Shown here piece by piece: positions 14,609-30,679 of a DNA stretch of 64,000 nucleotides. Within the stretch, counting starts at the first letter, position 1. The number at the start of each line of letters is the position of its first letter. The position numbers and the translations under genes were made by a program. Location of the stretch: IMG/VR virus record IMGVR_UViG_3300048998_000202; one strand, 5' to 3'. Source of the DNA: a virus (lineage: Duplodnaviria; Caudoviricetes). A model generated the notes under the pieces. The model was given only the letters and a program-made list of their open reading frames with translations. It searched no databases and had not been told where the DNA came from.

Positions 14609-15316
14609 TCAGTACGGCCAGCCGTTGTTGTCCGCACACGTCGGCCCATAACCCAGGTCCTTGGAGTGGTCCTTGGTCAGGTGCCTGCCACAGCTACAGC
14701 AGCACTTGTAGAGGTCGCCAAACTGCTTGGCGTCCTCCGCCGTCATCCGGCAGTCCTGAGTCAGGCGCCCGAAGGGCCGCTGGCCCGCGTAGAAAAACTT
14801 GTGGGTCTCGGGGTTGAACTGCTTGGCGTAGCGGCGGTCGGTCTCTTTGGCGGTGACGACCAGGAAGATGTCGTCGCCGACCTTGTAGGGGCCTTCCTCG
14901 GGAATGTAGGAGGGCTCCGGACGGCTCCGGGCCGAGGGGGTCTGGTCGGCCAGCGAGATCATCGCCTCCAGCAGATCACCGGCATTGTGTCGCGTGATCT
15001 CGTCGCCGTTGCAGACCTGATCCACCAGCAGGCGATGCTGCGGGGAGAGCAACTCCAGACTGATCTTCCGGCGCAGATTCCTGATGTAGCGAGCCTGGGC
15101 CGGGGAGATCGGAAGGACCGCGATCGGAGCAGGGCCCGGAGTCGACCTGGGCGCCGGGACTTTCGCGGCGGGTATGGCAGTCCTCTGCATGCCCAGGCGG
15201 TCGGCATACTCGTGGGCCACCTGGCAGCAGTGCCGGTCGTGTTCGGTAGCGGTGGAGTGGGCCTGGACGGTCCGCTCCATCATCCGGCGGGTGAAGCTCT
15301 GCAACTGCTGCGCCAT
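14609..15316 (-). CDS. DUF6011-like zinc-finger protein
   Basis: C-terminal CCSCGRHLT..S...GYGPTC; ATG 15316 after GGAGG. Confidence 0.75.
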   Translation of the reverse strand: MAQQLQSFTRRMMERTVQAHSTATEHDRHCCQVAHEYADRLGMQRTAIPAAKVPAPRSTPGPAPIAVLPISPAQARYIRNLRRKISLELLSPQHRLLVDQVCNGDEITRHNAGDLLEAMISLADQTPSARSRPEPSYIPEEGPYKVGDDIFLVVTAKETDRRYAKQFNPETHKFFYAGQRPFGRLTQDCRMTAEDAKQFGDLYKCCCSCGRHLTKDHSKDLGYGPTCADNNGWPY

Positions 15317-15354
15317 GATGGCCTCCAGTGGAGTCGGTTGTGGTGACATGGGAG

Positions 15355-17490: not shown

Positions 17491-20400
17491 TCAACCGAGC
17501 GTCACGGCCTCCCAGTGTCCTCCGACACAGACGTGGATCTCCGTGATGTCCCAGCTCGCAGGCTCGACCTTGGGCAGGAACCGTACGTGATGGTCTCGGT
17601 AGTCCAGCGTGATGTGCGGGGTCCACCCGTGGTCGTTGCGAACGTCGTAGCCGTGGGTCTCCAGGACATCCACCAGAGACTGGCGGAACGCCCCTCCGTG
17701 GGGGATGTCGACGGCAGCCCACAGCACATGCTGGCCAGGGTTCACGAATGTCCCGGCACCGCCTATACGAGCCGTCAGAGCCTTCTGAGTCCTGGCCCAG
17801 CCCTCGACCAGACCGTGCAGATCCCGGCGCTGCTTGGCGGTGTACTCCTTGGCGCTGCCCATGTAGGCCAGCGTGACGTGCATGGCCTCCACCGGCTCGC
17901 CGTCTTCCACGGCGATGTCCTGGCGGATCTTCTTCGGCGGGACGATGGCGATCATCATGCCGCCCGTGTCGGCGCCCTCGGCGGCCGTCTTGAAGTCCAA
18001 GCCGGAGAGCTTGGAGTCGAAGAGAGTGGTCAACGTGGTCCTCCTGGCGGTCGTTGGGACCCAAGACGTGGGGCCCGACGGGGACTCGTTCTTCCACTGG
18101 ACGAGCTGGGCCCACGGCTTGTCGGGGTGCTGGTCCAGGTACTTCTCGATGATGTTGGACAGATCAAACAGACCGTGACCACCGTCACCGAAAGCATCGG
18201 AGCGATGGGTGTGCAACTCCTCCCAGAGGTTCGCCGCCATACGGTGGCGCTCCTCGGCCGGGAGCTGGCCGATGGCCTGGATCTCGTGCAGAAGCGCCTC
18301 AGCATAGCCCCAGTACGACTCGGGCAGGTGGGTGGCGTTCCAGTCCTTCGGGACCTGGAGGGGGTGTACGGCCCAGTCGTCGCTGGTGACGTTGTACGCG
18401 GCATAGGGGCGCAGGTTCTTGATGTCCCAAGCACGGGGGTTTACGAAGAATGTTCTGTCGAAAGGCCCCACGCTCCGGCCGTCGGCCAAGGTGAAGAAGT
18501 AGTCCTTCACGTTCGCCATGGCCCACAGTTCGTCGGTGAGGGCAGTGGCGATCTCGGCGTCCTCCATCTCCTCGCATTGTGGGTCGTGGTCCCGGAACTC
18601 CTCGAAGTCGATGCCGATCAGGATGTCGAAGTCGCCGTTGCCCTGACCGTTCTGGTCCAACCACTGGGCGGCCTGGGACCCGGCGAAATACACCCGAGTC
18701 CACTTCTGCCAATCCCCGTACTTCCCCAGGACACCCCCCACGCGGTCCAGGATGTCCTGGCGGACCTCCGGGCGCAGGTGGTCGCCGTTGAAGAGTCGCT
18801 GGTCGTTCTGAGCGCTGTTGGGCCCCCAGTACTTTCCCTCCGGGAGCCAGGTGTGGGTCTGGGTGTACACCGGCCGATCTCCGACACTTCCTGCATGAGG
18901 ATCATCCTCGCCGTGAGAACCGTCCAGGTGAGCCCAGCCGTCCTGTGGGGTCATCTCCACCTCATGACCCCAGGAGTCCTTGCCCTGCGTGCCGTCCGGA
19001 ACAGGACCACCATCCGCGCTGGCCGTACGGCGAGCGCCCATCTCGGTGCGCTTGCGGTACCACTCCTTGCCCGAGGGGTGATCCATGGCCTGGTTGTAAT
19101 GATCGGGGTTGTTGTAGTCGCCCAGAGGAGCCGCCATACCCAGTTCGTGGGCGATAGCGAGACGATGGTGGCCGTCCATCACGTTCTTGCCGTCTAGAAG
19201 GACTGGAGCCTGAATTCCATGCTCGGCGATATGACTCTTCAGCGCGTCATAGTAAGCAGGCGCACTCTGGCGTAGCCGTTTCGCCACCTGGTCGAGGTTC
19301 AATCCCGGGTGATCAGGAAAGTGCAGGGATCCATATTCCTCGGGCTGCATGGTCCGACTGGGCCCAGGGTCATCTGCGACACTGGCCCGCTTGGTGACCG
19401 TGCTGACCTTGTACCGGCTCGGGTCGTCCTTCATCAGCCGCAGGTGCTTGCGGTAGTTACGGGTGAAAGTGCTTGCTGCGTCCTCGCCGAACATGTGGTG
19501 CAGCGCGTCGTGGTAGCCCTGCCGGAAACCGTCGCCGTGCACGACGTCGTCCGGCTGCCCGGCCTGGCTCATGTCCCGGCCGTTGCGGTGGATGTCCAGC
19601 AGGTGCCCGGCCTCGTGCGCCAGAGTGCCGTAGTCGTAGCGCCTCTTGTGCAGAGACACCCCGACGTCGCCCGTGTCAGCGTCGTAGGCCACCGAGGAAG
19701 AAGAGCGTGCCGGGTCCTCGTGGCGCTCCACGAAGGCGCTGGCGGCCCCGGGGTGCCCGTGGGCCTCCAGGACGTCCTGGAGGCGCTGGGACGCCTTCTG
19801 CTCGCTGTAGGGCAGCGGGTTGCCGACCTCCGGGTGCTGCTCGCGCAGGACCTTCTGGGCCATGGCGGTGGCGGCCTGGTGCGGCCGGGCGGCCGGATCC
19901 AGGACAGCACGCTTGCGCATGGGCCGCAGGAAGTCGTACCGACTGTAGGGCTCGGCCTTCTCGGCAGAGACGTCCCGGTGCGTACCGGACTCGCTGTCGT
20001 GGCCCTGCTTCCAGGAAACGCCGTGGACCATCAGCTTGGCGTCAGGACGTACCGGCAGGCGCCAGGAAACCTCAGGGTCGTACTTCTCCCCGTCCCGGAA
20101 GTTCTCGGTCCAGTGGTGCTTCTCCAGCGGGGTTCCGGCGTGCAGCACGACGTGGGTGGACGGGCAGCCGCCGTAGCCGGTCTCCGAATCGCCGCAGTCG
20201 TGCCCGCGCTCGTGATCGTGGTACGCCTTCCAGCCGCCCTGGTCTCCGTACTCGGCGGCCTTCTCCTTGCTCGGGCTCCAGTAGTTGCCCAGACCCCCGG
20301 TGGTTCCCTTGGCCTCCTCGGAGGTGATCTCCGGCCGCTCCTTACGGACGTGGGCCAGGAGCATGTGGGCGCGGGCTCCGGCGGGCTGGCTCTCGTCGTG

Positions 20401-21603
20401 GACGAACTTGTGGATGTGCTCGGGCAGCACGACGGACAGACCCCGGTGGATCAGGCCCGGGTCGTCAGGGTCCTCGGCGGCGTGCTTGCGCACCGAGATC
20501 TCCTTGTCATCGTCGTCGTACTCCGGGTCCTCCAGCGCTCCGGGGTCGGGGTGGTGTTTCACCCAGGCGTCCAGCATGTGCGGCGGCACCAGACGCGGGT
20601 GCATGCCCTTCTCCAGGTCCTCGTCGGCCATGTGGGCGTCGCTGCGCTCGTAGTCCTCGTCGCTGTCGTAGTCCAGCTCGGGGTAGTCGTGCATGGACTT
20701 GCGGTAGGTGTGCGGCTCGGAGCGGTATTGCACCGCGTTCTGAGCCTTGCGCAGCGTCTCGGGATTGTGCTCCCACATCGGCTTGTGCGCCGGGACCGGC
20801 GGCTGAGCCTTCTCGCGCTCGTTCATCTCCGGGTTGGCGCCGCTGTAGCGGGCCTGCCCGCCCATCCTCATGAGCTGGTCGGTCTGCTGGAACCTGTCCC
20901 GGAACGCCTCGCGGGCCACATAGCTGTTCGGGTGATGGTCCACCAGGGCGTGCTCGAAGTGGTCCCTGAAGTTGTCACCGTGCGGCTCCTCGTCGTCCTG
21001 GGTGCCCTTCTCCCGGTCGATGTGGTGGGCCAGCTCGTGCAGGAGGGTGCCGTGGTTCATGCCGCCCTTGCCGAGCACGATCCGAGGCGTGCCGTGCTCA
21101 GGGTGGATCTGGGCGAAGGAGTAGTCACGTTCCGGAGTGTGTTGAACGACGACCGGCCGTACCCCGGCCTTCTTGGTGACCTTGTCGGCGATTTGCTGGG
21201 CGTGCTCCACCGAGCTGACCGGGTGCTCAGGAAGATGCAGGGCCATCCGGTCCTCGGCTCCGTACTGACGTGCCTGTGTCCACGTCATCGGAGTCTTGCG
21301 GTCCTCGAACCGCATCTCGGGCTCGTGGTACTCTCCCGCCGTCCGGCGCCCTGTGGGGTGCGGATAGGCGCACATGATGCCCTCGGGCCCGAAGGCTCCG
21401 AAGCTGTGGCTGGGACCACCGTCGTTGTACCGGCCATCGCAAGGGGCATCGTCGGCGGTGTCAGCCGGTACGGTCCCTGCGGCGTCGCACAGGTAGCACT
21501 CGAAGCCGCTCCCGTGCTCCCCATGGCCACCGCAGCACGGGCAGGTCTTCTCCGGGCCGCTGGCGCCCTTCCCGAACAAGGTGGTCAGAGTCCTGAGCTT
21601 CAC
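17491..21603 (-). CDS. polyvalent multidomain protein: Zn finger, two HExxH zincin-like domains, ART-like domain, ParB-like domain, Pol-beta nucleotidyltransferase, 2H phosphoesterase
   Basis: GGAGG-GTG start 21603; CPCCGG..CYLC; HELAH; IHRG..GLGNYWS; HEAGH; PVLL...DGHHRL; FAGS..DFDIL; HVT/HIT. Confidence 0.8.
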   Translation of the reverse strand: MKLRTLTTLFGKGASGPEKTCPCCGGHGEHGSGFECYLCDAAGTVPADTADDAPCDGRYNDGGPSHSFGAFGPEGIMCAYPHPTGRRTAGEYHEPEMRFEDRKTPMTWTQARQYGAEDRMALHLPEHPVSSVEHAQQIADKVTKKAGVRPVVVQHTPERDYSFAQIHPEHGTPRIVLGKGGMNHGTLLHELAHHIDREKGTQDDEEPHGDNFRDHFEHALVDHHPNSYVAREAFRDRFQQTDQLMRMGGQARYSGANPEMNEREKAQPPVPAHKPMWEHNPETLRKAQNAVQYRSEPHTYRKSMHDYPELDYDSDEDYERSDAHMADEDLEKGMHPRLVPPHMLDAWVKHHPDPGALEDPEYDDDDKEISVRKHAAEDPDDPGLIHRGLSVVLPEHIHKFVHDESQPAGARAHMLLAHVRKERPEITSEEAKGTTGGLGNYWSPSKEKAAEYGDQGGWKAYHDHERGHDCGDSETGYGGCPSTHVVLHAGTPLEKHHWTENFRDGEKYDPEVSWRLPVRPDAKLMVHGVSWKQGHDSESGTHRDVSAEKAEPYSRYDFLRPMRKRAVLDPAARPHQAATAMAQKVLREQHPEVGNPLPYSEQKASQRLQDVLEAHGHPGAASAFVERHEDPARSSSSVAYDADTGDVGVSLHKRRYDYGTLAHEAGHLLDIHRNGRDMSQAGQPDDVVHGDGFRQGYHDALHHMFGEDAASTFTRNYRKHLRLMKDDPSRYKVSTVTKRASVADDPGPSRTMQPEEYGSLHFPDHPGLNLDQVAKRLRQSAPAYYDALKSHIAEHGIQAPVLLDGKNVMDGHHRLAIAHELGMAAPLGDYNNPDHYNQAMDHPSGKEWYRKRTEMGARRTASADGGPVPDGTQGKDSWGHEVEMTPQDGWAHLDGSHGEDDPHAGSVGDRPVYTQTHTWLPEGKYWGPNSAQNDQRLFNGDHLRPEVRQDILDRVGGVLGKYGDWQKWTRVYFAGSQAAQWLDQNGQGNGDFDILIGIDFEEFRDHDPQCEEMEDAEIATALTDELWAMANVKDYFFTLADGRSVGPFDRTFFVNPRAWDIKNLRPYAAYNVTSDDWAVHPLQVPKDWNATHLPESYWGYAEALLHEIQAIGQLPAEERHRMAANLWEELHTHRSDAFGDGGHGLFDLSNIIEKYLDQHPDKPWAQLVQWKNESPSGPTSWVPTTARRTTLTTLFDSKLSGLDFKTAAEGADTGGMMIAIVPPKKIRQDIAVEDGEPVEAMHVTLAYMGSAKEYTAKQRRDLHGLVEGWARTQKALTARIGGAGTFVNPGQHVLWAAVDIPHGGAFRQSLVDVLETHGYDVRNDHGWTPHITLDYRDHHVRFLPKVEPASWDITEIHVCVGGHWEAVTLG

Positions 21604-21612
21604 GTGCACCTC

Positions 21613-21645
21613 CACCCCTTCAGGGGGTCGCCGGGGGCCGGGACA
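21613..21645 (-). promoter_or_regulatory. putative late (phage-sigma) promoter
   Basis: TGTC-N19-TGAAGGGGTG, same spacing as the copy at ~59472-59504. Confidence 0.45.
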
Positions 21646-21648
21646 GCA

Positions 21649-21745
21649 GAAGGCCCCGCACCACAAGGGTGAGGGGCCTTCGAGCAAGGGGCCGGGGAAA
21701 CCGGCCGATCCCGCCAGAGATCCGAACTGGAGGCCCGAGGGCACA
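21649..21745 (-). ncRNA. candidate multi-target antisense small RNA
   Basis: intergenic; contains CCUCC + GGAUCUCUGGCGGGAUC complementary to a leader motif of many genes; ends in hairpin 21649-21681. Confidence 0.55.
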
Positions 21746-21807
21746 GATCTACCTTTGCTCCGGCCCCATGGAAGCACGAATCCCGAGGTCAACGCAAGGT
21801 TGTCTCA

Positions 21808-24660
21808 TCAGTAACGGGGGCGGCGTGTCCGTGATCCACCTCTCATTGAATCGGGTCTCATCCCTCGGGACTTCCCGAATCCTCCGAGCTGCTGGAAGAT
21901 CTGCTGCGGCGTTCTGGGGCTGTTGCTCATATCGTCGTTCCGGCTCATTCCGGGGAATGGCTCCATACCGCCCAGCAGCGCCCCCTGAGGGCGCATCGAG
22001 CCCAGTTCAGAGCGCATGGAGACGATCTGGTCTCCGATCAGCGCCATGACGCACTCCATCATCGCGTCGGCGACGTCCTTGGTCTGGACGGGCCCGCTGT
22101 CGGGGTGGTCCACCGCCCCGCTCTTCTCCTGGAGGAAGCGCAGCTCCAGCTCGGCCTGCTCGTAGTACGGCGCATGGACCCAGCCCATATAGACGGCGGT
22201 CTTGAATATCTCGGCCCGCTGCCAGTTGTGCTGTCTAGTCGCGGTCTTCTCATAGACCTGGGTGGTCTTGGGCAGCGTCGCCATTCGGGACCTGCGGGCC
22301 AGTCGCTGGATGACCTGGGCCGAGTTGAACTGGTCGAAAGTCATTTCTGTTGGCATGAACGGGGCGAGCATATTGCTCCAGATCCACTCCTCGACTTCGT
22401 CGTAATCGACGATGTGATCGGTGAAGTCCCCCGGAATGAAGTGATGGATCTTGTCGAAGACGACATGGAGCCGGTTGTCCGGGCCGGGCTCGGCGTGGGC
22501 CATGGCCAAGCCGAAGTTCGCGTTGGACTTGCTGGGGTCACCATGGGCCTTGTAGTCCAGGTCCAGACGGCCGCTCTCCTGCATGACCAGCAGGGGGCCG
22601 CCGAAGTGCGGTATCCGGCCCTCCCAGGGCTGGAAGATCTGCCGGACCTTCTCCTCTTTCAGGTAGGCGTCCAGTGCCACGGCGAAGTGGGACCGGCGCT
22701 CCACCTTGAAGGTCTCGGGGTTGGACTGCTCCAGCCGGGCCATCTGGTCGTCGTACGCCTGGATGGCACCGCGCAGGGGCTGGAAGTACAGCGGCGGCTG
22801 GTCCGCGTACTCCCCCAGGTCTCCGGTGTACCCCTCGGGGAAGATCGGGATCTCGTGGGCGATCTCCCAGTCCTTGTAGATGTCCCAGCTCGTGAGCTGG
22901 ACCATCAGCATCTCGGCGTAGACCGGCTCGCCCTCATCGTCTTCCAGGAGCGAGTTGCAGTAGTTGACGTAGAACTGCCCGAGCATCTGCCACGGCGAGC
23001 TGGGCTCGATGATGAAGGCGTCGGCCCCGAACTGGTCCAGGGAGGGCGTGGCGGCGCTGTTGTGCGAGACCAGTCCTTCAGCGATGAACGTGCCCGTGGA
23101 CGTCTCGATGTCCACCAGGCGCTGAGTCGGAAGCTCCTCGATCGAGACCACGCGCTTGAAGCTGCGATCTCCACGTACTGCTCGTCCCTGCCAGAGGTTC
23201 TGGACATTCTGGTTCAGCCGCAGCGGGCGGTACTGACCGAGGAACCGGAAGCAGTCCCGGAGTCCGACGATCTGGAACGACTGGCAGGTGCCCTTGCGCA
23301 CGTCGTGCCGTACGTCGAACTGCGCGTCCTCTAGGAGGTTCAAGACGCGATCTCGGACGAGACCCGGATTCTGGGCGAATCCGATCTTCATCGAGCCGCG
23401 CTCATCGAATCGGACGTGTCCCTCCCCGTCGTAGACCCCGGACAGATAACCGCCCTCGCGGGTGTTGTCCTCCTCCCAGGGGTCCACCAGGTGCTGGATG
23501 TGGTCTCCCACCCGAAGCTGAGACCAGTTCCCCCCGGCGCCATTGCGCAAGACGGACGGCTTGGTGATGGTCGCCCACCTGGTGTTGCCGCCCTTGAGGA
23601 CACGTGACCTCAACCACCGGTGATTCCCGGAACACACAACGGTCGAGCTGTCCTCCAGCGTGATGCGATAGGCGATCCCTTCCGTGTCCCACTTGTGCAC
23701 AACGGTGGCTTCGCGCAACTTGCGCGGGGTTCCGGATGCCCCAGAAGGTTCCTCGTCCATGGCCACCAGCGCATCGCCAGCCACCAAATCATCGATCTTG
23801 ACCCACGTCAGATCGGCCTTGAGAACCCGCGTCTCCGGATCCAGGCAGTAGACCTCCTCCGCAGCCCGGTTGGCCCCGGAGGCCACGACGTGCGCCATCT
23901 CGTCGTACGCCTGGCAGAACGAGGTGGGACCGCGTCCGGCCATGAGCGTGCTCTCCTTCGGCACGATCTCGAAGGTGGCCATGTTGATGTCGTCGGGGTT
24001 CATGCCCTGCTGGGCCCGCTTGCGCATGCGGACGAAGTCGTGCGGGGCGTAGACACTGAGTTTCTCGGCCTGGAGAGGCGCCCGGATGTACGGGGCGAAG
24101 CAGGCTGAGCCGACGATATAGTTGACCGCGTCCTGCCAAACGGTGGCCTTGGCCTGGTCCCGCTTCCCTGCGAAGACCATGGCCACGAGCTTCTTATCGC
24201 GGTCCACCCCGTAGTACCGCTGGGGGTCTCCCTTGGCCATGTAGTTCCACAGCACGTAGGCCATGGACAGCCCGGATATGTGCCCCTTACCGGCGCGGCG
24301 GCCCATCACGAGCAAGGTCTCGCGGAACCACTTCCGGCCCTCCTTGCGGAGCTTGGCCATGCGACGCCGGACACCCGGCACCACACCGTTGTTCCCCGTG
24401 GTCCGGAAGGACTCCTCCCACTCGTCGATGACCATGTGGTCGTAGTCGGTGAGCAGGTCCAGACGCAGGAAGATGATCTTCAGCAACGTGGCCTGGCGCG
24501 GGTAGATGTTCGCGCGGTCCAGATAGTCCTCGTCGATCACGAATGTGATCGGGTCGGGTATCTGGAGGCCGGTGAAGAGCTGAAAGATCTGGCCTGGTCC
24601 CATGCCGATGGGTATGCCGGAGGACCGGGCCTTCGTCTTGACCGGGGAGGGGGCTGGCAC
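21808..24660 (-). CDS. terminase large subunit (intein-containing)
   Basis: Walker A MGRRAGKG, Walker B QAYDEMAH, RNase H-like C-domain (HGDPS, TFDQFNS, KDVAD). Confidence 0.9.
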   Translation of the reverse strand: MPAPSPVKTKARSSGIPIGMGPGQIFQLFTGLQIPDPITFVIDEDYLDRANIYPRQATLLKIIFLRLDLLTDYDHMVIDEWEESFRTTGNNGVVPGVRRRMAKLRKEGRKWFRETLLVMGRRAGKGHISGLSMAYVLWNYMAKGDPQRYYGVDRDKKLVAMVFAGKRDQAKATVWQDAVNYIVGSACFAPYIRAPLQAEKLSVYAPHDFVRMRKRAQQGMNPDDINMATFEIVPKESTLMAGRGPTSFCQAYDEMAHVVASGANRAAEEVYCLDPETRVLKADLTWVKIDDLVAGDALVAMDEEPSGASGTPRKLREATVVHKWDTEGIAYRITLEDSSTVVCSGNHRWLRSRVLKGGNTRWATITKPSVLRNGAGGNWSQLRVGDHIQHLVDPWEEDNTREGGYLSGVYDGEGHVRFDERGSMKIGFAQNPGLVRDRVLNLLEDAQFDVRHDVRKGTCQSFQIVGLRDCFRFLGQYRPLRLNQNVQNLWQGRAVRGDRSFKRVVSIEELPTQRLVDIETSTGTFIAEGLVSHNSAATPSLDQFGADAFIIEPSSPWQMLGQFYVNYCNSLLEDDEGEPVYAEMLMVQLTSWDIYKDWEIAHEIPIFPEGYTGDLGEYADQPPLYFQPLRGAIQAYDDQMARLEQSNPETFKVERRSHFAVALDAYLKEEKVRQIFQPWEGRIPHFGGPLLVMQESGRLDLDYKAHGDPSKSNANFGLAMAHAEPGPDNRLHVVFDKIHHFIPGDFTDHIVDYDEVEEWIWSNMLAPFMPTEMTFDQFNSAQVIQRLARRSRMATLPKTTQVYEKTATRQHNWQRAEIFKTAVYMGWVHAPYYEQAELELRFLQEKSGAVDHPDSGPVQTKDVADAMMECVMALIGDQIVSMRSELGSMRPQGALLGGMEPFPGMSRNDDMSNSPRTPQQIFQQLGGFGKSRGMRPDSMRGGSRTRRPRY
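23059..23847 (-). mobile_element. intein (263 aa) with a single LAGLIDADG motif
   Basis: Y|CLDPET start, SGNH block B, YLSGVYDGEG, VSHN|S end. Confidence 0.9.
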
Positions 24661-24664
24661 GGGG

Positions 24665-24847
24665 TCAGTCCCCGTGTCCCCAGGCGCAGTGCACGAGGCC
24701 CTTCTCACGGTCTACGACGGTCCAGCCGTGCATCTGGGCGATGTCCACGGTCTGGAGTGCTCCATCGGCCTCCTGTGGCCTCCAGAAGATCGACTTGCAG
24801 CCGTCGTGTGAACACTTCACGTGCTCGGTGACGTTCTCTTCGGGCAT
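24665..24847 (-). CDS. small Cys/His protein
   Basis: KCSHDGC...GW...HC; TGATG coupling. Confidence 0.6.
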   Translation of the reverse strand: MPEENVTEHVKCSHDGCKSIFWRPQEADGALQTVDIAQMHGWTVVDREKGLVHCAWGHGD

Positions 24848-25733: not shown

Positions 25734-26774
25734 CTACCTCCCGAGCTTGGAGTGGCACGTACCGCACCGCTCCGCGTGGTCGTTGACCAGGTTGCCGCCC
25801 CCGCGCTGGAGGTTGCGCCGCGTGGTGCTGCGCGCCCCGATCTCCGGGTCGTTGGCCTGGTTGGTCATCAGGTTCACCACGTCGAACATGGTGATTTCGC
25901 GGCCTTCGGTGTCGCTGGCCAGAGCCGGGACGAGGTCCTCCAGGCGGCCGATCGTCCGCAGCGGCAGGTTCTGCTCAGCGGCGGCCCGGCGCAGGGCTCC
26001 CGTCGGGTCGTTGCCCAGCGGGGTGTTGCGCAGGTCGTAGAAGGCGTGGATGTCGGCCTCCAGCCGGTCCACCGCACGGGCGATCTCGGCCTCGAACAGC
26101 GTCTCGATCTCCCGCTCGGAGGCTCCACGGGCGTCGACCCTCAGACCCTGGTCGGGGAGTTCCATGCCGTTGGTGCACACCAGCCGGTACAGGTACGGCT
26201 GGATCCAGGGGGCGCTGTTGATCTTGCGGTCCTGGCCGATGCGGACACCGCCCCGAGTGATGTCACCGACGCCGGGAACGCCAAGGGCCTGGGGGTCGCC
26301 GCCAGTGCCGCGCTCGAAGCCCTCGGGGAAGATGACGTCCACGCGCAGCTCGTTCTGGTCCAGCCAGTGGTCCACGATCGGGGACTCGGCGGGGAACGTG
26401 GCCAGAGCCGCCTGGATAAGCCGGTTGGGTCGGACCCGGACCTCCCCGGCCTTGCGGATGTCGTAGACACCGTCCTCGTTGTACTGGACGGTCACCTCGT
26501 TGTCGGCCCGGTTGATCTGGGTGGCCAGGAGGAACTGCTGCTGGTCGGTGTCCAGGCGGCCGAAGAACTTCGGCGGGATGTCGAAGAAGGTGGCGAAGGA
26601 GGCCAGACCCTCCTTGGTGGCCCGGACTTCATGCTCGCCCAGGCGCAGGTGGGGCTGGTCGTCCTCCAGCATCACGCGGATGTGCTGGGAGACACCGCCC
26701 CAGGTGGTCAGGCGCTGGTCGTACTCGTTGGAAAGGTCTTCCAGGGTGGTGCCGGGCAAGCTGGTGAGGTACAC
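25734..26774 (-). CDS. DUF932-like protein
   Basis: PYLYRLVCTNGM motif; TMFDVVNLMT. Confidence 0.75.
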   Translation of the reverse strand: MYLTSLPGTTLEDLSNEYDQRLTTWGGVSQHIRVMLEDDQPHLRLGEHEVRATKEGLASFATFFDIPPKFFGRLDTDQQQFLLATQINRADNEVTVQYNEDGVYDIRKAGEVRVRPNRLIQAALATFPAESPIVDHWLDQNELRVDVIFPEGFERGTGGDPQALGVPGVGDITRGGVRIGQDRKINSAPWIQPYLYRLVCTNGMELPDQGLRVDARGASEREIETLFEAEIARAVDRLEADIHAFYDLRNTPLGNDPTGALRRAAAEQNLPLRTIGRLEDLVPALASDTEGREITMFDVVNLMTNQANDPEIGARSTTRRNLQRGGGNLVNDHAERCGTCHSKLGR

Positions 26775-26813
26775 GGGTTCTCCTCTGATCGGTGGCGGGA
26801 AGATTTTAAAATC

Positions 26814-27503
26814 TTACCCCTCAGAGTGAGCCGTTTCAAGCGCCTTGGGCCTCGGCGACTGCCGATTCCCCGTCATCATGGCCTTGAGCACAGGGTTTTG
26901 GGTCAGAGCCTGCCCATATGCCTGGAGACTCTCCGGCGGGATGAACCGTGCCGCGACCTCCATGTACGCCACGAGCGCTTCCTGCCACGCTGCCGCATCC
27001 AGACCCTCCTCGGAGGTGGACTCGATCGCGTGCTGCATGCGGATCGCGATCAGCAACTCCGACATGGACGGGTGGAGTTCCCCCCGGGCCAGCCGGTCCA
27101 TGCCTCGCTGAATGATGACCTCGTTGACCGTGGCGTAGTTCGCCAGCCCGGCCGTGTGATTCTCGATGTCCCGGCCGATGGCCTTGGCCCGCTCTTCGAC
27201 CAGCGCCCGCTCGGCCGTGGGCCCCAACGGCATGTGGTTCTTCAGAACATGGTCACGGATGGACTGATGCCCCGGATTGGGCAGCCGTCCCGGTTCCCGG
27301 TCTAGCAGAGCGTTGGCGATGCTCATGTAACTGTGCTGTTCCAGGATCGCCTGCTCGATCTCCAGTCGGTACGGAGACATGCAGGTGCGGCACTGGGTCA
27401 CCGTACGCATCGGATACTGACGGCCACCGATGTCGACCATCACCACGGAACCCGGGCGTCGGTGGGCGCCCGGGGCTGCCGGGTTGGTGTCCTCAATATC
27501 CAT
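26814..27503 (-). CDS. Zn-binding/HTH protein, possible terminase small subunit
   Basis: CRTC..R..IE..I...SY..IA...SIRDH...H then helical region; near terL. Confidence 0.5.
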   Translation of the reverse strand: MDIEDTNPAAPGAHRRPGSVVMVDIGGRQYPMRTVTQCRTCMSPYRLEIEQAILEQHSYMSIANALLDREPGRLPNPGHQSIRDHVLKNHMPLGPTAERALVEERAKAIGRDIENHTAGLANYATVNEVIIQRGMDRLARGELHPSMSELLIAIRMQHAIESTSEEGLDAAAWQEALVAYMEVAARFIPPESLQAYGQALTQNPVLKAMMTGNRQSPRPKALETAHSEG

Positions 27504-27990
27504 CGCGAATCCTTATGACTTGGTAGTGCCCGCTCTCAGGCGTCTGGCTGAAGACCGACCCGCAACGACAGGTCACTTCCAGTTCAGTGGACCTCAGATA
27601 CTTCGCGCAGATAGGGCACTTGATGCGGGCCTGCTGGCCCCAGTACACGCGCAGGTCGTAGGTGGCGCCGACCTCAACCTCGGATGCGCTGTGATGGAAG
27701 TGCGGATCGGCTCCAGTGCGGAGGTCGGCGGGCAGAGGGACCTTGCCCTCGACGCTGTTCAAATGCGGGTGGGTCGAATTCCACGCCCGGTGGTACATGC
27801 CACGTCGCGATGCCGCGTCCGGCGCCCCAGCCTCCGTATAGACCTCCCGGCGACGCCGGTCCATCTCCTTCCAGGGGGTCAGGATGTCCGACTTCTCGGT
27901 CATCGAGGTCACCCCCTCCAGAGACTCGCGGATCAGTTCCGTCGCCGCGTCGTCCAGGGTCGGATGCACGCCTGAGTGGAGTTGCCCCAT
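27493..27990 (-). CDS. hypothetical protein with C-terminal zinc ribbon
   Basis: CPIC...CRCG. Confidence 0.65.
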   Translation of the reverse strand: MGQLHSGVHPTLDDAATELIRESLEGVTSMTEKSDILTPWKEMDRRRREVYTEAGAPDAASRRGMYHRAWNSTHPHLNSVEGKVPLPADLRTGADPHFHHSASEVEVGATYDLRVYWGQQARIKCPICAKYLRSTELEVTCRCGSVFSQTPESGHYQVIRIRDGY

Positions 27991-28342
27991 GGCCGTCCTC
28001 TGCTGTGTCTGTCCGGAAGCGGGGGAGCTTCCCTTCCGCGATCATCTCCAAGATGCGCTTGAGTCCGTGCGCGGCATAAGAGGCAACTGGGTTGGATTCA
28101 GACACGCCCATGAGCCGGGCGACGTCCTTCTCCTTGATGTTCTGCACCAAGAACAGCTCTATGGACTGCCGTTGACGAGGACTCAGGTGTATTCGGGCGG
28201 CATACAGGTACTCGATGTCATGCAGCGAGTAGGCGACGCCATCGGGGCCGTGAACGGTGTCTACGTGCTCGCTCTCGTAGAGCGACCGGAAAGCTTCGAG
28301 GTTCTTGAAGAGAGACCTCAGCACACCAACCGTCAACGTCAA
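27674..28342 (-). CDS. sigma-70 region-4-like HTH protein (possible phage sigma factor/activator)
   Basis: LSPRQRQSIEL......EKDVARLMGVS; last ~105 codons overlap the next gene. Confidence 0.7.
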   Translation of the reverse strand: MTLTVGVLRSLFKNLEAFRSLYESEHVDTVHGPDGVAYSLHDIEYLYAARIHLSPRQRQSIELFLVQNIKEKDVARLMGVSESNPVASYAAHGLKRILEMIAEGKLPRFRTDTAEDGHGATPLRRASDPGRRGDGTDPRVSGGGDLDDREVGHPDPLEGDGPASPGGLYGGWGAGRGIATWHVPPGVEFDPPAFEQRRGQGPSARRPPHWSRSALPSQRIRG

Positions 28343-28516
28343 GTACCCACGGGTGCCCTTCTCCGACTGCTCCGAAGCTGCCCCTGTAGTCGGGGCGATG
28401 GGATAACCATCAAATATGAGCCTAGAGGATCAACGTTCAACTGCCAACAAACCCTGGGGTAGAACCCCAGGGTTGTGGCTGACCTGCAATATTTAGTTGC
28501 CCAACGTGACTGCGGG

Positions 28517-29197
28517 TCACGCAGACAGGACATCCTTCAAGCGCTGGGACAGCAAGCTCATACTGCGCGTCACCGCATCGGCCTTCCGCGACAGCAACGC
28601 CTGGAATACGGCGAACAGCCGCTCGTCCCGGGAGGCCAGTCGTCCGGCCTGGGTCCGGTCCTCCACGGTCTTACCGCCGACCGTTCGGGAGTCCTGATAG
28701 CCCCGAGCCAACGCCTGCTCCCAGACGGCCTTGGCGAACATCGCGTCCCCCCACAGCCGGGAGGACTGCTGCTCCCACTCGAAGAGCTGGGTCGTGATCT
28801 TGAAGAGGAAGTGCTCGACCTCCTTGGTGCCCAGTTTGGTGTAGTCCTCCACGAACGAACCGGTCTCGGTCCGGGCCCAGATGGTGAAGCCGTGGACGTC
28901 AGTGGCGATCTCCCCTCCGGGCAGCATGTGCGGCTCCCGGACGATGTCGAAGATCTCGTTCATGACCTGGTAGGCCCCGGCGAACCGGTGGAGCATCTCC
29001 CGCTCCACCACGGCGTGGATGCCCTCCATGGCCTCGGCGTCCTCCGGCAGCCACGTCATGCGCATCCGGGACAGGCCGGTCCGGGAGAACTCCTGGGTAC
29101 GGTCATCGTGGGGATCCACCTCCGCAAGGCGATCGGCCTCCACGGACTCCTCGCGTATGACGCGGTCTTCGGACCGGTCCTCCGGTTCCTCGCTCAC
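28517..29197 (-). CDS. conserved hypothetical protein
   Basis: GGAGGAG RBS, GTG 29197. Confidence 0.8.
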   Translation of the reverse strand: MSEEPEDRSEDRVIREESVEADRLAEVDPHDDRTQEFSRTGLSRMRMTWLPEDAEAMEGIHAVVEREMLHRFAGAYQVMNEIFDIVREPHMLPGGEIATDVHGFTIWARTETGSFVEDYTKLGTKEVEHFLFKITTQLFEWEQQSSRLWGDAMFAKAVWEQALARGYQDSRTVGGKTVEDRTQAGRLASRDERLFAVFQALLSRKADAVTRSMSLLSQRLKDVLSA

Positions 29198-29817
29198 TTC
29201 TCCTCCAAACGCAGGTGCCTGAGGCCGACGAAGACGGCGTCCCGGACGTGTTCCGTCCACACACCGGCACCGGTCGGATGCTCACAGATGAGGTCCTCCA
29301 CCAGTGCGGAGGAGACGGCTTTGGGAGCATGCCGATCTCCGCACAACAGGGCACCGGCGGCCTGTCGGGAAACGAAGTCCGGCTGCTCTCGGCCCATGCG
29401 GTCCAGCTCCACACAGATGGTCACGGCGGCCACGAGCGAGGACTCCGTCCGATAGCCGACGACAGAGGGAAGTTCCAGAACCACTTCGTCGAACATGCTG
29501 TACTGCTTGCTGAGTACGACACCGATCTGCCGGGACAAGAACACGGCCTTGGCGAAGGTGGCCTCGAAGCCCTTCGCCCCACTGGCCGTAGGCGGCCGGA
29601 TAGTGCCCGACGCCGAAACCGTCAGATCCCCGGAATAGGTGTCCAGCATCGCCCAACCGCAGTTGCTCAGCGTCTGGTCGAAACACAGCACCGTCCGATT
29701 GGGCCGGAAGTCCCCCACCTGCGACGGCCGGAAGGCCGGAGGGGTCTTCTTGGATTTTCCCTCGGCGACTTTCTCGCGTATACGGCGGAGGATCTCCTCC
29801 GCCAATTCCTGACTCAT
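29194..29817 (-). CDS. ruvC: RuvC-like Holliday junction resolvase
   Basis: VLCFDQTLSNCGW, VVLE, HVRDA motifs. Confidence 0.75.
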   Translation of the reverse strand: MSQELAEEILRRIREKVAEGKSKKTPPAFRPSQVGDFRPNRTVLCFDQTLSNCGWAMLDTYSGDLTVSASGTIRPPTASGAKGFEATFAKAVFLSRQIGVVLSKQYSMFDEVVLELPSVVGYRTESSLVAAVTICVELDRMGREQPDFVSRQAAGALLCGDRHAPKAVSSALVEDLICEHPTGAGVWTEHVRDAVFVGLRHLRLEEK

Positions 29818-29836
29818 GATCATCCCCCTGGCAGGA

Positions 29837-30679
29837 TCAAAAACTGCGGATCGCGCACCCGGTAGCGGGACACGACTTGGACTCTTTGCTCCCAATGGCA
29901 CAGCACTGCTCCGGAGGCATTCCGGCGGCTTCAGCCGCCCGGACGAGCCGGTACTTCGCCTCCAGGGCCACAACGTACGTGGGGTTGTACTCGACGTGGA
30001 TCTCCCGCATGACCCAGGGGAAGCCCATGCCGATGAACAGCATGATCATCATCCGCAGGCCGGACAGCGCCATGTACTCCTGCATCTGCCCGTAGTAATA
30101 CGGGTGCTTGGCCCGTAGCCACGCCAGGGTCTCCGCCTTGTCCGGACCCTCAGGGATTTTCGCGGCGGAGAAGTGGTTGATCGTCTTCAGATCGAAGCCG
30201 GTCATTCCCAGGGCGGGGGTCATGACGATGCCGTCCATATGGCCTCTCCGTCTGAGGACGGGGTCGGCCACCCCCGGTTCCCCGCATTCGTCGTCTCCCG
30301 GCCCGTACGGGCGCCCGCAGCACGGGCAGGTCCCCGTGGGAGGGATCAGCGCTCCGATGTCAGCCAGGGCCATCTGGACGATGGCGTGCTCCAACGTGCC
30401 GACGGTGACCGACATCCGGCCCTCGTATCCCCACGGTTCGGCCACCCAGCGCTGTGGCTGTGCAAGGTAGTAGTACAACTTCCGCGCGTCCATGGTCGGG
30501 TGCGTGGACGGGTGGAACCAGCCGTCGGGGTCCCGGTCGAGATTTCCTCCCGGCAAGGTGATCCGGGTGTTGCGGGGGAAGCGCCCCTCGGCCACGTACA
30601 GGCGGACGAGGGGCGCGAGCACGGCTCCCTGAGAGGCCATGTCGCCCTCGCGGGCGAACAGGTCGTCCAGGCCGGTCAC
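29837..30679 (-). CDS. Cas4/RecB-like PD-(D/E)xK exonuclease
   Basis: FHPS, GT..H, GHMDG, FDLKT, QMQEY, C-terminal Cys cluster. Confidence 0.8.
   Translation of the reverse strand: MTGLDDLFAREGDMASQGAVLAPLVRLYVAEGRFPRNTRITLPGGNLDRDPDGWFHPSTHPTMDARKLYYYLAQPQRWVAEPWGYEGRMSVTVGTLEHAIVQMALADIGALIPPTGTCPCCGRPYGPGDDECGEPGVADPVLRRRGHMDGIVMTPALGMTGFDLKTINHFSAAKIPEGPDKAETLAWLRAKHPYYYGQMQEYMALSGLRMMIMLFIGMGFPWVMREIHVEYNPTYVVALEAKYRLVRAAEAAGMPPEQCCAIGSKESKSCPATGCAIRSF

Follow-up and report, generated by a model that had tools for sequence, protein, structure and literature searches.

Phage polyvalent proteins are recognized by the presence of 2-15 distinct conflict-type domains in one polypeptide and by their setting in phages with terminase-portal packaging; Iyer, Burroughs, Anand, de Souza and Aravind (2017) predicted that they are delivered through the capsid and processed by their own metallopeptidase (PMC5512222). 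In phage T4, a 10-residue capsid-targeting sequence is used together with gp21 cleavage of the internal proteins and Alt (PMC9026906), and in phiKZ, 201phi2-1 and SPN3US a single motif directs the prohead proteases (gp175, gp245) to numerous head and ejection proteins (PMC10052503, PMC7411985). Both polyvalent proteins and protease-processed capsid cargo are already known. Here we describe a protein of 1370 residues encoded at positions 17494-21603 (minus strand) of IMG/VR record IMGVR_UViG_3300048998_000202, a 64,000-nucleotide stretch of DNA from a Caudoviricetes virus (hereafter the window), which is probably a capsid-targeted polyvalent protein cut at a basic-x-Ala motif by the phage's own prohead protease.

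As in the proteins catalogued by Iyer and colleagues, many conflict-type enzyme domains are joined here in one polypeptide of a terminase-portal phage: seven modules can be delimited by BLAST breakpoints and by linkers with a low predicted local distance difference test score (pLDDT), the gene lies beside that of the large terminase (TerL), the modules are extensively shuffled among relatives, and the repertoire appears likewise to be one of zincin peptidase, ADP-ribosyltransferase (ART), GNAT, NUDIX, ParB-like and 2H domains. That study differs in describing neither a junction motif nor a leader (the word "linker" occurs 0 times), in placing assemblin-like peptidases at C-termini only, whereas the protease domain is N-terminal in the second polyprotein reported below, and in finding Pol-beta nucleotidyltransferases only in proteins of conjugative elements, whereas here a nucleotidyltransferase and a 2H domain form the constant core (PMC5512222). 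The likeness to T4 lies in a short N-terminal peptide that is common to unrelated, diverse and fast-evolving cargo and ends in a cut motif (the putative K-T-A-A or similar in the present case), as well as in a protease that cuts itself, as is predicted here, and a motif that recurs in the protease's own precursor and in another head-region protein, in our case the protease polyproteins and a giant head-module protein of relatives. T4 differs in that its motif is L/I-x-E (or A/S-x-E) and each gene encodes one cargo, whereas the motif considered here is basic-x-Ala, with Ala rather than Glu at P1, many cargoes are encoded per gene, some of them embedded in the protease gene itself, and the system is known from sequence alone. 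The phiKZ-type systems share with the one proposed here the use of one protease and a short motif, multiple sites per substrate and the processing of ejected proteins, but in these mostly N-terminal propeptides are removed and the separation of enzyme strings is not known for them. Effectors fused to MuF, portal or protease proteins in actinophages and other phages also ride on head-assembly proteins; these are single fusions, however, and neither repeated cut-site linkers nor a shared leader are described for them in the literature searched. Likewise, we found in that literature no description of the junction motif, of the shared leader, of the same cargo modules inside a protease-scaffold polyprotein, or of the constant nucleotidyltransferase and 2H core.

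Junction motif and leader of the polyvalent protein

Module limits were obtained by BLAST of the query against 54 relatives, and two AlphaFold models covered the modules, with the predicted domains being used for fold searches. The BLAST limits place M1 at residues 1-66, M2 at 70-376, M3 at 373-566, M4 at 562-735, M5 at 736-862, M6 at 857-1170 and M7 at about 1204-1370, with breakpoints among the relatives at 59-70, 372-378, 562-568, 736-742, 857-868 and about 1204. The C-terminal third (M6 and M7) is constant in the relatives and the front part is variable, exchanging NUDIX, GNAT, ART-PolyVal and other modules. M2, M3, M6 and M7 are predicted as confident, separate domains; M4 and M5, for which the alignment lacks depth, are poorly modeled as a result.

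The initial annotation had read the gene as a polyprotein with a similar basic motif at nearly every module boundary, and both the module motifs that it listed and its six boundary motifs are found in the translation where it placed them, the latter being RRTAG at residue 86, RKHAA at 372, RKRAV at 563, KRAS at 738, RRTAS at 858 and FKTAA at 1204. The strict form [RK][RK]xA has 4 matches in the protein where 1.4 are expected from composition, all among these boundary sites, and three of them (372, 563 and 858) lie 5-6 residues ahead of an independently determined BLAST breakpoint. The low-pLDDT segments that contain or abut the six sites are 84-93, 372-376, 568-577, 723-770, 852-866 and 1177-1210; five sites fall within them, and the remaining one, RKRA at 563-566, closes the last strand of M3 (554-565) just before the segment 568-577. 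The expectation that the motifs would lie in disordered linkers, not within folds, is thus borne out on the AlphaFold models, and the relatives have them at the borders of their modules, which confirms that they are conserved.

Across the family, strict motifs lie near BLAST breakpoints in 57 of 177 cases against 10.8 expected, and relaxed motifs in 91 of 319 against 19.4; the relaxed motif is present in 53 of 133 non-redundant junction windows, compared with 4.6% of random windows. Because the sequences are related, the p-values of these enrichments are overstated, and the non-redundant count is the safer figure. An alignment of 67 non-redundant sites on the Ala shows preferences for F at P9, P at P6, V/I at P5, R/T at P4, K/R at P3, T/R at P2, A at P1 and A/S/G at P1', followed by a D/P/G-rich stretch. 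F occupies P9 in 24 of the 67 sites (background 2.7%), P occupies P6 in 22 and V or I occupies P5 in 31; since these positions were not used in picking the sites, their bias constitutes partly independent support, though two common modules with a C-terminal strand in common account for some of it. The possibility that the motif serves as a recombination joint was considered and rejected, as only 3-4 residues are involved and their codons vary.

The protein begins with a short leader, and the same sequence, M-x-(x)-L-T-x-L-F-x-K-T-A-A or a close variant (~12 residues), starts 41 of 46 family members, with the module that follows it being a Zn ribbon, M2, M3, a ParB-like module or another. Elsewhere in the family, L-T-x-L-F is matched almost exclusively in the M6/M7 linker, at a distance of ~175 residues from the C-terminus, and no other open reading frame of the window carries the leader. 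Synonymous codon positions of the leader vary, so the constraint operates at the level of the peptide; an RNA target site or other constraint at the nucleotide level was rejected on the same ground.

The second leader copy coincides with what appears to be an internal start. Inside the M6/M7 linker a putative ribosome-binding site, AGGAGG (18045-18040), which encodes Arg-Arg, is followed by an in-frame TTG (18033) for Leu. Of four relatives, three share the arrangement AGG-AGG…TTG with the window and the fourth reads CGG AGG…TTG, even though both codons are rare, with AGG accounting for 6.8% of the Arg codons and TTG for 7.7% of the Leu codons. Furthermore, a database protein of 180 residues with 86% identity (P0057) has its start assigned to this very TTG. 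Because these elements are kept despite the rarity of their codons, and given P0057, a separate translation of the 2H enzyme, with its own copy of the leader, is probable in addition.

Protease polyproteins of related phages

Six related loci are available in IMG/VR, three of them in complete genomes of 154-160 kb that include the protease and the major capsid protein. A search of these three genomes with the leader pattern found the protease gene, which was confirmed with PHROGs; a strict DNA pattern requiring Lys gave no match in the relatives, and a looser one matched. Pfam models of the prohead proteases S78 and S77 found nothing in the three complete relatives, a result that is uninformative because the S77 control matched nowhere. 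In genome G001 the second leader-bearing gene encodes a protein of 900 residues (916 from an upstream TTG) whose N-terminal domain matches "head maturation protease" (phrog_18299, E 2.7e-23), and downstream of this gene lies that of the major capsid protein (phrog_2522, E 1.7e-103). Beyond the protease domain the order is GLQTAA, KLLTDLFVTAAE, which is a copy of the leader, a DUF7178-type module, ALRRTAS and a C-terminal domain of Zn-ribbon and Pro/Gly-rich type. In the G002 version (open frame 1274 residues, gene 1231 residues), the sites QKTAAQ and TKQAAQ enclose two additional kinds of module, ParB-like (DGHHR) and GNAT-like, of which the GNAT-like module is 35% identical (E 2e-11) to part of P0004, a member of the polyvalent family; the version in G003 (open frame 709 residues, gene 575 residues) is without these inserts.

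A database search retrieved 665 protease polyproteins of 540-1596 residues, of which 120 were analyzed. Strict motifs occur at their breakpoints 88 times against 25 expected, and a match to x-[TKRQEH]-A-[AGST] lies within 35 residues past the protease domain in 92 of the 120. At the junction that precedes the constant C-terminal domain, P1 is Ala in 112 of 115 sequences, with K/R at P3 in 69, R/K at P4 in 65 and Y/F at P1', and upstream of this junction the sequence is diverse, with 100 distinct heptamers. Among cultured phages, the Bxz1-like mycobacteriophage ArcherS7 encodes a protease polyprotein of 1370 residues (gp97) and a giant neighbor (gp96), and KTAG and RTAA occur at apparent junctions in both.

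Additionally, the head module of G001 contains a third polyvalent protein, of 1247 residues (G001:26342-30142, or 26342-30082, the latter corresponding to L012:3842-7582, minus strand), in which an Arr-ms-type ART, a SWIM zinc finger and M3-like modules are separated by the linkers TTAA, HTAS and VTAA. Some of its modules also occur in the terminase-adjacent family, with 60% identity to the member P0047, and it is partly homologous to ArcherS7 gp96.

Proposed processing and its alternatives

That basic-x-Ala is the site of the prohead protease is supported, indirectly but strongly, by the occurrence of the same sites in the protease gene of the relatives. Under the probable explanation of cleavage by this enzyme, which the initial annotation had already proposed, the protein would be built from a leader L-T-x-L-F…K-T-A↓A, a shuffled cassette of enzymes and a constant pair of nucleotidyltransferase and 2H phosphoesterase, joined by linkers of the form (F-x-x-P-V/I)-[RT]-[KR]-[TR]-A↓[A/S/G] and a D/P/G-rich stretch. 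The leader would recruit the polyprotein to the assembling prohead, where the head-maturation protease would cleave after the Ala of each linker; the freed enzymes would remain with the DNA, be ejected into the next host and act there at once on defense or on host nucleic-acid or protein targets. The protease would similarly free itself and its embedded cargo from the scaffold-like C-terminal domain, the terminase-adjacent protein would be an additional carrier of cargo, and the 2H enzyme might also be produced on its own from the internal start, with its own leader.

Herpesvirus assemblin, an enzyme of the prohead-protease fold, cleaves between Ala and Ser. Several observations weigh against the explanation. 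The head maturation proteases of jumbo phages, with which the protease domain of the present group shares homology, cut after Glu (A/S-x-E), not after Ala. The initial annotation had suggested that the motif be sought in capsid and scaffold proteins, and it does recur in the protease polyproteins of relatives, but no site is evident in either the major capsid protein or the scaffold-like protein of G001; moreover, no head genes lie within the 64-kb window, so that it is through relatives that the protease is linked to the polyvalent protein. The polyvalent gene is located ~80 kb from the head module, downstream of a structured spacer of ~200 nucleotides. With respect to the motif, the site RRTA at residue 86 lies ~16-27 residues past the M1/M2 breakpoint and 16-20 residues within the M2 unit as defined by BLAST, the other five being at borders; ~40% of the computed breakpoint windows carry the relaxed motif, many such breakpoints not being true module borders; and the relaxed motif consists of few residues and is not confined to linkers, 2 of its 9 matches in the protein falling within folds, one of them being the HEAGH zinc motif.

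Since two modules of the protein have a zincin fold, the linkers could instead be cut by the protein itself, with the HELAH of M2 and the HEAGH of M4 acting before packaging or after injection and the prohead protease being uninvolved. This would agree with the published model, which assigns processing of polyvalent proteins to their metallopeptidase domains and for which P1 DdrB is a precedent (PMC5512222), and also with the Cys-containing peptide GIMCxYPH…RRTA↓G, which stands ahead of the M2 zincin in every M2-bearing relative and which, speculatively, resembles the cysteine-switch pro-peptide of a latent metalloprotease. The zincins, however, belong to the variable cassette, and self-processing is weakened because members without any HExxH (P0035 and P0045) retain linkers and leader; furthermore, the same sites are present in protease polyproteins that contain no zincin, where they directly flank a prohead protease domain of the serine-protease type. 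On balance we regard self-processing as quite unlikely.

Cleavage might also not occur, in which case the product would be one tethered multi-enzyme in the cell or the virion, as for Sog and TraC1, polyvalent proteins that travel uncut (PMC5512222), and the motif and leader would serve in binding to nucleic acid or a partner, or mark folding boundaries. The location of the gene outside the head module and the motif-free capsid and scaffold-like proteins of the relative count in favor of such a product. Tethering nevertheless explains the motif poorly, because a fixed Ala with basic P3/P4 and small P1' edges unrelated modules in three different polyprotein loci, including the protease's own gene, and the leader is found only at N-termini and before the 2H module, which can be started separately; an uncut protein therefore seems to us rather unlikely. 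The cuts could, finally, be made by some other protease, either of the host or a different enzyme of the phage, with the leader being a signal for export or sorting and not a capsid tag. Small residues at P1 and P1' are also typical of signal-peptidase-type sites, and in staphylococcal phage 80alpha the host enzyme Prp processes head proteins. The leader, however, has neither a hydrophobic core nor a twin-arginine pattern, and the hundreds of relatives in which the motif goes together with the protease gene of the phage itself make a host protease unlikely, leaving this alternative highly improbable.

Cleavage by the prohead protease could be part of a more general arrangement in Bxz1-like actinophages, which we put forward tentatively, as a possibility somewhat short of even likelihood: an address tag and a basic-x-Ala site would together form a "cargo code" by which modules can be plugged into any of three carriers (the terminase-adjacent, the protease-scaffold and the head-module giant polyproteins), loaded, cut free and injected, with the M2 zincin perhaps being latent until its Cys pro-peptide is removed by the same cut. 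If true, the leader and the basic-x-Ala sites would be for actinobacteriophages what the capsid-targeting sequence was for T4, providing a readable rule by which capsid-borne proteins could be recognized and a simple means of loading proteins of choice into phage heads. The standing model of polyvalent processing would shift from the proteins' own metallopeptidase to the head protease, and the free swapping of anti-defense enzymes would be explained by each module bringing its own cut sites. The family is large, with 54 polyvalent relatives in addition to the 665 protease polyproteins, and the idea is directly testable because cultured Bxz1-like mycobacteriophages carry similar sites.

Modules, gene and genomic setting

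Positions of the leader, modules, predicted cut sites (↓) and neighboring terminase in the window
Feature	Position	Strand	Residues	Remarks
N-terminal leader MKLRTLTTLFGKGAS	21559..21603	-	1-15	L-T-x-L-F plus K-x-A-S/A; pLDDT <50
M1, zinc ribbon of CxxCxGxG type	21394..21558	-	16-70	four Cys, CPCCGGHG…CYLCD (residues 21-39)
Short Cys-containing peptide (GIMCAYPHPTG) and site RRTA↓G	21337..21393	-	71-89	
M2, zincin HELAH…HGDNF	20491..21336	-	90-371	HELAH 189; SprT/Spartan-like metallopeptidase fold
Site RKHA↓A	20479..20490	-	372-375	low-pLDDT segment exactly 372-376; BLAST breakpoint peak 378
M3, HRG…GGLGNYWS module	19906..20478	-	376-566	HRG 386, GGLGNYWS 436-443; ends in RKRA↓V (19906-19917)
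M4, second zincin HEAGH…HGDGF	19381..19905	-	567-741	HEAGH 663; ends in KRA↓S (19381-19392)
M5, ParB/Srx-like	19021..19380	-	742-861	DGHHR 810; ends in RRTA↓S (19021-19032)
M6, Pol-beta-type nucleotidyltransferase and helical domain	18046..19020	-	862-1186	GS 975-976, DFD 991-993
M6/M7 linker RRTTLTTLFDSKLSGLDFKTA, second leader copy and site FKTA↓A	17983..18045	-	1187-1207	pLDDT <50 over 1177-1210
M7, 2H phosphoesterase	17494..17982	-	1208-1370	HVT 1242, HIT 1330; both HxT motifs invariant
Large terminase with intein	21811-24708	-		intein at about residues 288-551; Pfam Intein_splicing

Pfam analysis of the whole protein recovered only the C-terminal 2H phosphoesterase, to which PHROGs add the ParB-like stretch; single modules gave nothing in Pfam beyond a sub-threshold SprT-like match, and sequence searches of M2, M3 and M5-M6 against the PDB gave no match. 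ART, zincin and ParB are likely to describe the folds of the respective modules and not established memberships. M1 is shuffled among relatives, being internal in P0012 for example, and has no Pfam match; from its sequence we infer that it is DnaJ-like. The peptide at residues 71-89 travels with M2, and in P0011 and P0012 the leader is joined to DDGIMCVYPH..RRTAG. M2 itself is modeled with pLDDT >90, and its closest fold matches are SPRTN and Wss1 (top match SPRTN 6mdx, Z 5.9), followed by other zincins; its SprT-like Pfam match scores 16.4 bits, under the cut-off of 25.6. M4 parallels M2 in its motifs (HExxH…HGxxF), and its residues 631-725 are 30% identical to the M2 region of P0003.

M3 is found in nearly all relatives, with K564 and A566 nearly invariant. 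The initial annotation had called it ART-like, which agrees with matches to ART proteins in the fold searches (pertussis toxin S1, Foldseek E 0.018, Z 5.1) and in the Atlas comparison (0.88 to Arr-ms and PARP); these matches are weak, and so is the assignment. It has no Pfam match, and the PF18760 (ART-PolyVal) domain of relatives maps to another module. In M5, which has no Pfam match and a poor model, residues 775-824 match phrog_498 (E 4e-6) and the ParB-like phrog_620 (E 0.008), and the BFVD matches are to a "ParB-like nuclease domain protein" of Cluster C mycobacteriophages. A weak ParB_N match in P0022 was dropped as support for M5 because it sits in a module other than the M5 homologue.

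In the constant part, the G-S…D-F-D signature of M6 is invariant, and the Atlas comparison relates the module (0.95, 197 shared features) to viral clusters annotated "Nucleotidyltransferase family protein"; fold matches to minimal nucleotidyltransferases are weak (Z about 5), and Pfam gives no match. M7 is a 2H enzyme of the LigT/CPDase type (Pfam PF13563, 44.8 bits against a cut-off of 27). The initial annotation had noted that 2H phosphoesterases include the anti-CBASS protein Acb1 as well as RNA-repair enzymes; M7 is closer to drCPDase (Z 17.9) and LigT-type enzymes (Z 15.9) than to Acb1 (7t27, Z 9.5), the fold being no guide to the substrate. In Microbacterium phage ValentiniPuff (L013:3830-5002) and Arthrobacter phage Edmundo (L014:3893-5005), a 2H homologue forms the front of the gene that comes right after portal/MuF. 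The annotations of this gene conflict, being capsid maturation protease, RNA ligase or aldolase, and may hide a fusion with 2H cargo.

The minus-strand open reading frame 17491..21792 is real, and its likely start is the GTG at 21603, 5 nucleotides after GGAGG; an identical database protein begins at the same start. As the initial annotation had stated, the gene adjoins that of the terminase, which lies upstream and whose product, over 90% of its length, shares 33% identity with the proteins annotated as terminases in Bxz1-like (Cluster C) mycobacteriophages. None of the six related loci has the intein in its terminase. Between the two genes lies the spacer of ~200 nucleotides (21604-21810, minus strand), which is conserved in relatives and is translated alike (…CGAFCCPG…PEGVEV) in the mis-called N-termini of several database proteins. 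The window is transcribed almost entirely from the minus strand, with the tail genes occupying 56-64 kb and a replication block 31-54 kb, followed by the terminase and the polyvalent gene. The gene order TerL, polyvalent gene, g16374, g15787 is kept in the related loci, and flanking genes are 60-87% identical between the window and its relatives.

No near-identical cultured phage was found, cultured phages matching M6 or M7 only, and no polyvalent gene follows the terminase in the Cluster C mycobacteriophages. In those phages the terminase is placed after the lysis genes, a position that only hints at late expression. The source of the window is probably a Bxz1-like myovirus of roughly 155 kb with a Streptomyces host. 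Many of the protease polyproteins come from NCBI assemblies of Streptomyces and Kitasatospora, on contigs of 150-157 kb of which one is labeled a plasmid, and the corresponding phages may persist in cultures as extrachromosomal elements. Downstream of the polyvalent gene, the gene at 14612-15349 (minus strand) encodes a protein with a terminal CxxC element of the DUF6011 type (Pfam E 7e-12).

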